Shown one piece after another: positions 34,612 to 52,585 of a stretch of 64,000 nucleotides of DNA. How positions within the stretch are numbered: position 1 is the stretch's first letter; every line of letters starts with the position of its first letter. The stretch spans positions 88,600,001 to 88,664,000 of the forward strand of contig NC_086097.1 of the NCBI RefSeq assembly GCF_963921235.1, given 5' to 3'. Under the pieces are notes generated by a model. The model saw nothing but the letters and a program-made list of their open reading frames with translations. It was not told where the DNA came from and ran no database searches. Made by a program: the position numbers and the translations under genes. Source of the DNA: Mobula hypostoma. Its lineage: Eukaryota.

Positions 34612-37416
34612 CTGAAGGCTTTGTGTGTCAATGCAAGGAGCATTCGTAACAAGGTGGATGAATTGAAAGTGCAGATTGTTATTAATGATTATGATATAGT
34701 TGGGATCACAGAGACATGGCTCCAGGGTGACTAAGGATGGAAGCTCAATGATCAAGGATATTCAATATTCAGGAGGGATAGAAATGAAAGAAAAGGAGGT
34801 CGGGTAGCATTGCTGGTTAAAGATGAGACTAACACAATAGAAAGGAAGGACATAAGCCGGGAAGATGTGGAATCGATATGGGTAGAGCTGCATAACACTA
34901 AGGGGCAGAAAACGCTGGTGGGAGTTGTCTACAGGCCACCTAACAGTAGTAGTGAGGTCAGAGATGGTATTAAACAGGAAATTAGAAATGTGTGCAATAA
35001 AGGAATATAAGTTATAATGGGTGACTTCAATCTACATGTAGATTGGGTGAACCAAATTGGTAAAGGTGCTGAGGAAGAGGATTTCTTGGAATGTATGCGG
35101 GATGGTTTTTTGAACCAACATTTCGAGGAACCAACTAGAGAGCAGGCTATTCTAGACTGGGTTTTGAGCAATGAGGAAGGGTTAATTAGCAATCTTGTCG
35201 TGAGAGGCCCCTTGGGTAAGAGTGACCATAATATGGTGGAATTCTTCATTAAGATGGAGAGTGACATAGTTAATTCAGAAACAAAGGTTCTGAACTTAAA
35301 GAGGGGTAACTTTGAAGGTATGAGTCGTGAATTAGCTAAGATAGACTGACAAATAACACTTAAAGGGTTGACGGTGGATATGCAATGACAAGCATTTAAG
35401 GATTGCATGGATGAACTACAACAATTGTTCATCCCAGTTTGGCAAAAGAATAAATCAAGGAAGGTAGTGCACCCGTGGCTGACAAAAGAAATTAGGGATA
35501 GTATCAATTCCAAAGAAGAAGCATACAAATTAGCCAGAAAAAGTGGCTCACCTGAGGACTGGGAGAAATTTAGAGTTCAGCAGAGGAGGACAAAGGGCTT
35601 AATTAGGAAGGGGAAAAAAGATTATGAGAGAAAACTGGCAGGGAACATAAAAACTGACTGTAAAAGCTTTTATAGATATGTAAAAAGGAAAAGACTGGTA
35701 AAGACAAATGTAGGTCCCCTACAGACAGAAACAGGTGAATTGATTATGGGGAGCAAGGACATGGCAGACCAATTGAATAATTACTTTGGTTCTGTCTTCA
35801 CTAAGGAGGACATAAATAATCTTCCAGAAATAGTAGGGGACAGAGGGTCCAGTGAGATGGAGGAACTGAGCGAAATACATGTTAGTAGGGAAGTGGTGTT
35901 AGGTAAATTGAAGGGATTAAAGGCAGATAAATCCCCAGGGCCAGATGGTCTGCATCCCAGAGTGCTTAAGGAAGTAGCCCAGGAAATAGTGGATGCATTA
36001 GTGATAATTTTTCAAAACTCGTTAGATTCTGGACTAGTTCCTGAGGATTGGAGGGTGGCTAATGTAACCCCACTTTTTAAAAAAGGAGGGAGAGAGAAAC
36101 CGGGGAATTATAGACCGGTTAGCCTAACAGTGGTGGGGAAACTGCTGGAGTCAGTTATCAAAGATGTGATAACAGCACATTTGGAAAGCGGTGAAATCAT
36201 CAGACAAAGTCAGCATGGATTTGTGAAAGGAAAATCATGTCTGACGAATCTCATAGAATTTTTTGAGGTTGTAACTAGTAGAGTGGATAGGGGAGAACCA
36301 GTGGATGTGGTATATTTGGATTTTCAAAAGGCTTTTGACAAGGTCCCACACAGGAGATTAGTGTGCAAACTTAAAGCACACGGTACTGGGGGTAAGGTAT
36401 TGATGTGGATAGAGAATTGGTTAGCAGACAGGAAGCAAAGAGTGGGAATAAACGGGACCTTTTCAGAATGGCAGGCAGTGACTAGTGGGGTACCGCAAGG
36501 CTCAGTGCTGGGACCCCAGTTGTTTACAATATATATTAATGACTTGGATGAGGGAATTAAATACAGCATCTCCAAGTTTGCGGATGACACGAAGCTGGGC
36601 GGCAGTGTTAGCTGTGAGGAGGATGCTAAAAGGATGCAGGGTGACTTGGATAGGTTGGGTGAGTGGGCAAATTCATGGCAGATGCAATTTAATGTGGATA
36701 AATGTGAAGTTATCCACTTTGGTGGCAAAAATAGGAAAACAGATTATTATCTGAATGGTGGCCGATTAGGAAAAGGGGAGGTGCAACGAGACCTGGGTGT
36801 CATTATACACCAGTCATTGAAAGTGGGCATGCAGGTACAGCAGGCGGTGAAAAAGGCAAATGATATGCTGGCATTTATAGCGAGAGGATTAGAGTACAGG
36901 AGCAGGGAGGTACTACTGCAGTTGTACAAGGCCTTGGTGAGACCACACCTGGAGTATTGTGTGCAGTTTTGGTCCCCTAATCTGAGGAAAGACATCCTTG
37001 CCATAGAGGGAGTACAAAGAAGGTTCACCAGATTGATTCCTGGGATGGCAGGACTTTCATATGAAGAAAGACTGGATGAACTAGGCTTGTACTCGTTGGA
37101 ATTTAGTAGATTGAGGGGGGATCTGATTGAAACGTATAAAATCCTAAAGGGATTGGACAGGCTAGATGCAGGAAGATTGTTCTCGATATTGGAGAAGTCC
37201 CGAACGAGGGGTCACAGTTTGAGGATAAAGGGGAAGCCTTTTAGGACTGAGATTAGGAAAAACTTCTTCACACAGAGAGTGGTGAATCTGTGGAATTCTC
37301 TGTCACAGGAAACAGTTGAGGCCAGGTCATTGGCTATATTTAAGAGGGAGTTAGATATGGCCCTTGTGGCTACGGGGATCAAGGGGTATGGAGGGAAGGC
37401 TGGTGCAGGGTTCTGA
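34612..37416 (+). pseudogene. CR1 ORF2 (APE endonuclease + reverse transcriptase), single frame with 4 internal stops; element 3' UTR extends to ~37508
   Basis: [77 protein letters not shown] all in one frame; stops at 34732, 35008, 35347, 35386; tail ttctatatttctatgt. Confidence 0.97.
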
Positions 37417-44590: not shown

Positions 44591-45553
44591 TGATGCCCTG
44601 GTGCTCTTTCTTAATGTGGTCTACTCATTAAGTCTAAACAAAGCACAACTATTCTTTTGAGCGTCTCTTTGAAGAATTTATTAAGATTTGCTGTTAGGCC
44701 CTAAAGAGGACATATAATATGCACTATATGACTAAGAAATATGGTTAAGACTCCAGCAACAATTATTTGGGTGTTTTTTTCTGAGGACTTCATCTAAATA
44801 GTATAGTTGATATGTTGCCCCACAAGTTGTAGGATGTTGACTGATTTTCTTTCTAGAGGAGAAGAAATGGAGCAAGAAAGTGGGGGTTGGCTAAATCACA
44901 GCTGCTGCAGCATAGAGGGACAGGAGGGTAAAGTGCCATCCTTCCTCACCGAGCATATTGGACATTCTCTTCCTCTGCCACATCCAATAAAGAATAAACC
45001 CTTTCACTTTGTCTCTTCGCTACCCAGGGGATAGGTGCAATGGAAAGTGAGTGAGCAGCCCACATGCACAGCTCCACTAAAGAATGCATCCTATCAATGC
45101 TTCAGTGCCAATCCCTCATATGTGGCTGGTTTTGCTGAAGATAAACTCAAATTATAGTAATCACCAATTAGGACCAAAACCCCTAGCTAAATTCAGACAT
45201 TCAGAGTCCTGCCTTATTAATACAATCTACATTTATCTGGGAAAGACTTTGTGACCTGATGAAATTGCTACTTTGGAGATTTCATGTGTAATAGAAAATT
45301 TATCACAAAATGTGACCAGCAGTACAATTAGGAGGCAATTTAATACTTATATCCTTGTCCCCGGAGCTAAACATTCATAGAACTCTGCGGACGTTAGTTT
45401 AAAGGAATGAATATTGGAATAAAAATTGTCTATTTAAGAGGTCTGCATAATTTAAGTGAAGGGGATTTTCAGATATTAACTGGTTTTGTCTAGCAAAACA
45501 CAGTAATACAGGTGCAGTAATGAGAGAGTATAAAAACACTTCACACCATCCAC

Positions 45554-45715
45554 AAACAACAGGAATTCTGCAGATGCTGGAAATTCAAGCAACACACGTC
45601 AAAGTTGCTGGTGAACACAGCAGGCCAGGCAGCATCTCTAGGAAGAGGTGCAGTCGACGTTTCAGGCCGAGACCCTTCGTCAGGACTTGACGTTTCAGGC
45701 CGAGACCCTTCGTCA
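45554..45715 (-). mobile_element. Short PLE terminal-repeat insertion with a tandem partial hammerhead duplication
   Basis: TSD tcacaccatccac at 45541-45553 and 45713-45725; full hammerhead 45651-45687 plus partial copy 45689-45715. Confidence 0.92.
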
Positions 45716-46806
45716 CACCATCCACCATGTTTTAAAAGATTGTATACTCAGTGTGTTCAAGATACTTGATGAAAATAATCTTCATCATTTTTTGATGAGG
45801 ATATAACAAGTCAGTTTTGGATATCCTCTAAGCCCATTAGTGATGCCCAGCTTTAGATTGATAGGACTGTTCTATGTCTGCCCCACTGAACATGGAACTA
45901 CATGATTTAAGGTCTTCTCAGTACAAAGTGAGGTCTTTGTATCCTCAGGGTCCATGTAGATGTCTCTCCTACCAATATTGCCATGAATAGATACAGCTGT
46001 GTCAGCTAGATTTGTAAGTGCATTTTTCTCTCATGGTGTTATTCTCACTACCTGCTGCAAGCACAGAATAACATCTATGCCATTCAGGACTCAAACAATG
46101 CATTTGCCAATGGTATCACCAAGTCATTACCCAGTGTTAAGTCAGTGTCCTTGCTAACTCAATGCCACTTTAAGAAATGTTCATTGTTGAAGTACATCAA
46201 ATCAGCAGCTAATGAATTAGTATTCAATAGTTTTGACCTGAGAACAATGGTAAACAGTCAATGTTCAGGACTTGTAGAAATATACTTCACTTACAATAAC
46301 AAACTGGCATTTTTGTCTGTAACATAATGGAAGCTGTATTGTACCAGAGTACTTTGCTACTAGTGTTCATAAAAATTATGTCGACAGAACCTGAGTCCTT
46401 GACAAACTGCAGACCCAGCAGATGTGTTACTGGAGGAATGCCAAGTACAGTGATTAAGCAGGTGAACAGAATGCACCCTGTCCTTGAATTGACATGCAGT
46501 AGCAAAAGGAGCCACTTGTGTATAAAGGAATGACTATGCTGTCTGTTTTTTCTAAGCTATCACCGGCTCTTATATAGTGCTAGTCTTCCCTTGCTGTAAG
46601 TAAAATAAATGTACTTATGATTGATCCACACTGAGTGAATTGTTGTTTGTTATAAGATGTAGCGAAAAGGTACTCGACAGGCTCCAAATGCTACGCCCTT
46701 ATTCTGTTGCTATCTCTTGGGTTGGACCACCAATGGGAAATACCTGGTGATGGTACTGCAGAAGATTGTGTCGTTAGCTGAAATCTATGACTTGGTCTGT
46801 TTTAGG

Positions 46807-52427: not shown

Positions 52428-52456
52428 AAAGTGGACAGAGTACTAACAATGAAACA

Positions 52457-52585
52457 TGACGAAGGGTCTCGGCCTGAAACGTCGACTGCGCCTCTTCCTA
52501 TAGATGCTGCCTGGCCTGCTGCGTTCACCAGCAACTTTGATGTATGTTGCTTGAATTTCCAGCATCTGCAGAATTCCTGTTGTTT
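52457..52585 (+). mobile_element. Short PLE terminal-repeat copy starting inside the hammerhead core
   Basis: tgacgaagggtctcggcctgaaacgtcgactg...gaattcctgttgttt. Confidence 0.88.

Follow-up and report, generated by a model that had tools for sequence, protein, structure and literature searches.

The insertion at positions 45541..45725 of the window (the whole stretch of DNA analysed, 64,000 nucleotides long) is an ordinary 5'-truncated copy of an abundant Penelope-like element (PLE), and it does not show that its ribozyme cleaved in the cell. The partial hammerhead copy that precedes the complete one is best read as the product of position-locked re-priming on an uncut template during integration, a reading to which we give a probability of about 0.6. 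The pattern of such junctions across the family is a more useful result than the locus itself.

Anatomy of the insertion and its element family

Positions in the element are counted from C17, the last base of GAAACGTC (position 0); the predicted cut lies between 0 and +1, and the 5' arm of helix I begins at -31. The insertion is 172 bp long (159 bp plus a 13-bp target-site duplication, TSD) and holds no ORF. Its minus-strand string of repeat, junction, and second copy matches exactly the one given in an earlier sequence-only reading of this DNA, and the placement of the insertion inside a 13-bp TSD is confirmed (45713-45725 and 45541-45553). Its parts, in the order of the minus strand, are as follows.

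45713..45725, minus strand: 5' copy of the 13-bp TSD; empty sites in organisms C and E
45689..45712, minus strand: partial copy on the upstream side, running from C7 of the core across helix II and GAAAC as far as C17 (position 0)
45688..45688, minus strand: A at the junction, either untemplated, templated by fold-back, or a G decayed at a CpG
45651..45687, minus strand: downstream copy, a complete minimal hammerhead-like motif by its sequence against the definition in the available text of PMC4209133
45687-45684, minus strand: 5' arm of helix I, downstream copy
45683-45677, minus strand: hammerhead core, downstream copy
45676, minus strand: extra A after the core, downstream copy
45675-45664, minus strand: helix II, in which G10.1 faces U, not C
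45663-45660, minus strand: GAAA, then palindromic ACGT, downstream copy
between 45656 and 45655, minus strand: predicted scissile bond, downstream copy
45655-45652, minus strand: 3' arm of helix I, downstream copy
45554..45650, minus strand: 3' part of the PLE terminal region, which stops at the "long" RT start (+102, tail included), as judged from the clusters of 3' ends in the family
45541..45553, minus strand: 3' copy of the TSD, the second 13-bp repeat

The last three nucleotides of the TSD (TGA, 45715-45713) are microhomology with the ribozyme core. The upstream copy had been said to open with this TGA; its letters do match the core, but they are the end of the TSD, and therefore the inserted partial copy comprises 24 nt (45712-45689). 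The empty site in relatives, proposed as a check, is seen in two organisms: in organism C, a contig joins 45540 to 45713, with 172 bases absent and the 13 letters fitting either side, and in organism E, 45713 continues directly into the left flank.

The second copy was rightly called complete. All parts of a minimal hammerhead are present at 45651..45687, and the copy fits type I, with the CUGANGA, GAAA, and NUH core, the extra nucleotide 9/10.1, and palindromic 15.2-16.2. The canonical G10.1-C11.1 pair is absent, T being found at 11.1 in both window copies; positions -9/-8 are CT in 42, CC in 8, TT in 2, and CG in 2 of 54 background copies. Rfam at gathering thresholds yields no match anywhere in the window. 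C3 and the two arms of helix I are missing from the upstream half. The minimum-free-energy fold of the region is not the hammerhead fold; in it, AGUC/GACU is predicted to stack on GACG/CGUC, and the latter 4-bp stem terminates at C17 (position 0). For the 80 nt of both copies, an alternative long hairpin is predicted instead. The suggested resemblance to a compact tandem dimer is accordingly abandoned: by its anatomy and its predicted fold, the tandem cannot form a proper hammerhead dimer.

The core has 9 matches in the 64-kb window and 0 in 100 shuffles, so the motif is not due to chance, and its exact 18-mer has 74,584 matches in the 3.48-Gb genome. Loci L261 and L146 carry a reverse transcriptase (RT) together with a GIY-YIG domain at the C terminus in one ORF, which ends ~300 nt upstream of the core; Pfam reports GIY-YIG at E=6.3e-4 and 8.9e-4 (L261 and L146 ORFs) and RVT_1 at E=1.5e-4 (L146 only), all below the curated cut-offs. 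The translation P0001 contains a DKG motif and two cysteines between GIY and YIG, both named as features of EN+ PLEs in the available text of PMC8557442. Family members have a terminal repeat with the hammerhead motif, inverted 5' copies, a tail at one end, and a TSD; the family is an EN+ PLE. Its 3' ends form two clusters, at about +59-74 and +100-105, and the focal copy stops at the long site.

A sister of the focal copy from its young subfamily (96% over 129 nt) lies on the plus strand of the window at 52456-52585; it also begins at TGACG, stops at the long site, and has no stutter. A 675-codon open frame of a different abundant repeat occupies ~35388-37413 of the plus strand, and similar frames occur in L264, L124, and L041.

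Junction positions across the family

Direct tandem cores are rare, the tandem pattern having 171 matches, many of them within one minisatellite, vs the 74,584 core 18-mers. Matches with gaps of 0-25 nt were all listed, and those with gaps of 26-30 nt were listed through contig C67, leaving out 29 rows; among the matches listed, 164 were parsed, yielding 115 junctions after repeats within a locus had been merged. For these 115 junctions (among the matches listed), the upstream copy ends at +7 in 41 and at +6 in 4 (45/115), at -1 in 7, at +3 in 6, and at +8 or further in only 3; a further 8, from which the focal locus is excluded, are compatible with 0, 3 of them exactly. The commonest junction insert, again among the matches listed, is G (16).

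A second, tighter pattern (anchor CCTGAAAC, downstream copy from AGTCC or earlier) gives 70 rows in 65 loci, a set that overlaps the first one and was tallied by eye. Here, 28 loci end at +6/+7; 13, including the focal one, at 0; 9 at -1, with G next in 6 and 3 ambiguous; 6 at +3; 2 at +1/+2; 1 at +5; 1 at +8; and 5 elsewhere. Ten of the 13 loci at position 0 are blunt, and acceptors other than AGTCC are found among them. For the 12 non-focal loci at 0, the Poisson probability is ~7e-5 under a flat null, which ignores hairpin ends and the C at 0, +3, +6, and +8.

The minor peak at the predicted cut is thus real against a flat background. The major peak at +6/+7 needs no cleavage, and no cleavage product ends there; the focal locus sits in the minor class (0), outside the main one. 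The histogram of internal junctions, which had been proposed as a check for a spike at the cut, is far from uniform and has a minor peak there (13/65), but its main peak is at +6/+7 (28/65; 45/115).

The letters at +6 and +7 both match the subfamily of the locus itself in 31 of 42 cases; therefore, the +7 end is templated and position-specific. In some loci, the same stop is repeated with differing junction letters (L032 at +3, L097 at +6/+7, and C76:11409825 at 0), which points to repeated restarts within one event. As individual examples, L055, L057, L071, and L114 show a sharp templated +7 stop in three subfamilies, with almost nothing from +8 to +17.

Several related patterns were also considered. 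The pattern for 3' termini in -3..+11 (2,705 matches, 100 listed) picked up mainly an older subfamily differing after +5 and was set aside. "CAAGTCC" as a separate start of a short element is explained by query bias, TSD letters, and +7 junctions. For capped transcription starts at AGTCC/AGTTAG with a cap-copied G, no excess of G is seen by eye among the 100 of 7,340 matches listed. In open-literature titles and abstract openings, we found no histogram of junction positions relative to a PLE hammerhead cut.

Cleaved template, later change, and time of origin

Frequent use of cut RNA as the template should make 5' ends accumulate at +1. The sample consists of 111 young copies from 1.68 Mb, made up of random stretches, flanks, and the window (including the focal downstream copy and two edge cases); of these, 102 span the cut intact, 33 start at -40 to -17, and 1 starts at +1. 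Genome-wide patterns for copies broken in a 10-position window give 1,316 matches around the cut vs 7,340 just 5' of the core, the anchor of the around-cut pattern being at least as common (25 vs 18 in 0.71 Mb). Among the first 90 of the 1,316 matches listed, an apparent start at +1 is seen at 23 of 89 loci and is the commonest within -3..+6. Starts without microhomology at these 89 loci (among the matches listed) number 12 at +1 and, at other G positions, 9 at -2 and 8 at +5, with 2-3 at each non-G position from -3 to +4. A small excess of 5' ends at +1 is possible; the clear spike sought in the proposed check of termini is not seen (111 copies; 89 loci among the matches listed).

Two kinds of single cases may be mentioned here. 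In the flank of L125, a copy starts exactly at +1 after the TSD plus one T, a candidate cDNA run-off from a cleaved 3' product. At L316, L327, and similar rows, the whole core is cleanly deleted, AGTC being joined to GACTG via GTC microhomology, as expected from a skipped template hairpin.

The excess at 0 over the neighboring positions (13/65 loci, against 0-2 at each of +1, +2, +4, and +5) would follow if a minority of transcripts were cleaved by the ribozyme, with the RT jumping from the RNA 5' end onto C17 of the 5' product and the A being a non-templated overhang, or with second-strand synthesis stalling at the 5' end of the hybridized 3' product. The nine loci at -1, six with G, and one locus with two successive units that end at 0 with different junction letters agree with this, as do, in the available text of the sources, the jumping of R2 RT via a non-templated overhang of 1-2 nt (PMC8857657) and the cleavage of the anole PLE hammerhead with its protein present (PMC11167929). 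We still find such a jump onto a cleaved end doubtful, since the bigger +6/+7 peak and the +3 peak represent the same product formed with no cleavage end, a clear 5'-end spike at +1 is missing, and the focal junction may be read as +1/+2 as well. The 5' product of hammerhead cleavage ends in a 2',3'-cyclic phosphate, and it is this end that the acceptor would carry. In 16 loci of the canonical G10.1-C11.1 variant (by eye; 6 shared with the first set), 2 end at 0 and 9 at +4 to +8, so that in this small sample the share at 0 is not higher with the canonical pair (2/16) than in the G-U variant (13/65). Minimal hammerheads are, furthermore, described as nearly inactive in vitro and as needing dimers (PMC4209133, available text).

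Hence, of the proposed RT template jump, a template switch at insertion is supported, while the jump onto a cleaved end is the less likely part, the bigger +6/+7 peak forming without one. The stronger claim of genomic evidence for cleavage in vivo is not supported, given the dominance of +6/+7, the +3 peak, and the lack of a clear pile-up at +1; position 0 is also a stem end, and the share at 0 is not raised with G10.1-C11.1.

The single unmatched base noted earlier between the copies, A at 45688, is present, and its origin is ambiguous between three readings. It may be untemplated; it may be fold-back-templated, as it completes a 5-bp TGACG/CGTCA stem with the upstream copy in a predicted DNA fold (-3.8 kcal/mol); or it may be a CpG-decayed G, which places the junction at +1/+2, the result also given by the automatic parse. 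The undecayed junction GTCGA-AGTCC is present at L041, and decay of G to A at +1 is seen in 2 of 73 background copies. Position 0 plus A is the likelier parse, though not a unique one; the end of the upstream copy at the predicted scissile bond holds to this extent. The exact focal junction occurs once in the genome, GTC-A-AGTCC being found at no other locus. Fold-back of the upstream copy was rejected as a general source of GTC-AGTCC, as GACG is kept upstream in only 3-4 of 8 such loci (by eye).

The repeated unit includes AGTCC, the upstream copy lacks it, and the TSD is intact; one later slippage step, hence, cannot make this allele, and the stutter probably arose during insertion. For organism B, a gapless 46-letter piece across the junction, with a 30-letter overlap with the flank contig, is present in two runs from a single sample; two letters differ in each of the two junction-side contigs, most simply the same two inside 45686-45715, and organism B is read as carrying the same stutter. 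Its flank contig ends at 45686 with 2 other letters, and that contig alone also fits a duplication-free allele; for the proposed search of orthologues for a missing duplication, the gapless piece speaks for the same stutter, with this contig as a caution. In run X2 of organism A, the gapless junction piece is absent among the matches listed (8 records, filtered list).

A change after insertion, from +1/+2 or 0 plus G with the G decayed to A, or from +7 (GACTGCA-AGTCC) by loss of 6 bases, would make the match to the scissile bond partly accidental. Three loci have the +7 string and one has the undecayed +2 string, and the letters that differ in organism B fall most simply within the junction region; such a change is nonetheless improbable, given the rarity of G-to-A at +1 (2/73) and the gapless piece in organism B, by which any deletion would be older than the split. 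Tandem duplication after insertion by replication slippage, which the sequence-only reading had kept as a chance 33-bp event, or an assembly error would suit the flank contig of organism B and the listed records of organism A, but is highly improbable in view of the AGTCC unit, the intact TSD, and the gapless piece with its flank overlap in both organism B runs.

Integration mechanism and related elements

The fetched G000 loci, most of which came from the junction-pattern selection, contain 162 head-to-head inverted insertions (e.g., L002, L158, L170). One long and one short arm are combined in 159, two short arms in 3, and two long arms in none, while ~39 long-long pairs are expected at random in a similar set; the 3' ends of long arms are mostly at +100-105, and those of short arms mostly at +55-75. 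The arm reaching further 5' is the long one in 62 cases and the short one in 88, with 9 ties; fold-back of one cDNA as the sole source, which predicts that the long arm always reaches further, was rejected. The pairing of one long with one short arm suggests priming of the two target strands on a single RNA, at its two start sites, which sharpens the known "tail at one end."

Under re-priming on an uncut template, the endonuclease would cut the target with a 13-nt stagger, and the RT would start internally at the long site (+102) and copy the whole uncut hammerhead as far as the base of helix I (-31), the region in which 5' ends of the family cluster. Synthesis would then restart at a position set by structure, and the second short stretch would join the target (or, family-wide, the inverted arm) by microhomology, presumably TGA at the focal locus. 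The restart may be made by the RT on RNA or by second-strand synthesis on cDNA; the data fit both. The GACG/CGTC stem ends at position 0, so that its extrusion as a hairpin in the nascent strand would let synthesis begin again at 0 without cleavage, and snap-back extension could, judging from the letters, provide hidden microhomology for the GACTGCAGTCC and GACTGTACAGTCC products. For the anole PLE (PMC11167929, available text), uncleaved RNA is the dominant insertion substrate in vitro, the RT needs no homology for its internal starts, and RNA-seq gives no reads with either end at the cut. Evidence against re-priming is that the peak at 0 is real, includes non-AGTCC acceptors, and is mostly blunt; the frequency of apparent 5' starts at +1 (23/89) and the place of the focal locus in the minor class also count against it, and this reading does not account for ends at exactly +7. 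The -1 class with G could represent a mismatched-overhang jump onto the C17 end, which would bring the cut-site class to ~22/65.

Similar to the EN+ PLEs of PMC8557442 and PMC3846280 (available text of both), the family has an ORF with RT and C-terminal GIY-YIG upstream of a hammerhead-bearing terminal repeat, 5' truncation, TSDs, partial tandems, inverted 5' copies, a tail at one end, and 5' junctions with microhomology; the last four are PLE traits already described. What differs here is the tandem unit, which consists of the 33-nt hammerhead hairpin and nothing more, and the available text of these papers does not give a position-locked histogram of junctions vs the scissile bond. The Poseidon PLE of Anolis carolinensis, PAc (PMC11167929), likewise starts reverse transcription at two internal sites (here at about +55-75 and +100-105), extends both target strands, and has a hammerhead just upstream of those sites; in the available text, its start site is the same for both strands and re-priming products are not reported, whereas here 159/162 inverted pairs combine one long with one short arm, and the junctions of tandems concentrate at +6/+7 and 0.

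The minimal type I hammerheads of metazoan PLEs, as presented in the available text of PMC4209133, share the CUGANGA/GAAA/NUH core, the extra nucleotide after position 9, palindromic 15.2-16.2, the absence of loop 3, and a helix I of 4-5 bp; in contrast, G10.1 faces U here and in most of the young subfamily, helix II has 3-4 bp, and activity here is only predicted. Template jumping by R2 and group II intron RTs (PMC8857657, available text) resembles our case in end-to-end cDNA joining with 0-2 extra junction letters and is shown in vitro for the non-LTR RT on free 3' ends, while here most junctions lie at the internal +7, where no RNA end is known. Non-LTR retrozymes (bioRxiv 10.64898/2026.07.22.740005, available text) similarly consist of tandem hammerhead-bearing units akin to PLE terminal repeats; their consensus is 51-972 bp, vs a one-off junction product of 33 nt here. 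The focal tandem as such a retrozyme was rejected, as its exact junction is unique in the genome, its upstream unit is incomplete, and there is no full ribozyme per unit. Separately, L135 (G000:C67:45319296 onward) repeats the hammerhead hairpin region (~-43 to -1) dozens of times in units of 44-45 nt; this minisatellite is a candidate for a tiny array resembling retrozymes.

In vivo evidence for cleavage by PLE minimal hammerheads is said to be absent (PMC4209133, available text), and one locus cannot decide whether they cleave in the cell. It is unlikely that the 0/-1 class (up to ~22/65, the focal locus included) reflects RT jumps onto the C17 end of hammerhead 5' products, with +7 a third, unreported internal re-initiation site; if it does, the genome documents germline cleavage by the minimal hammerhead of a metazoan PLE. 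The family histogram makes exact predictions for the in vitro system already in use: synthesis should restart at +7, 0/-1, and +3, and each inverted insertion should combine one long with one short arm. Should dead ribozymes remove the peak at 0 and no other, a record of cleavage is preserved in genomes; otherwise, the peaks map the geometry of PLE integration.
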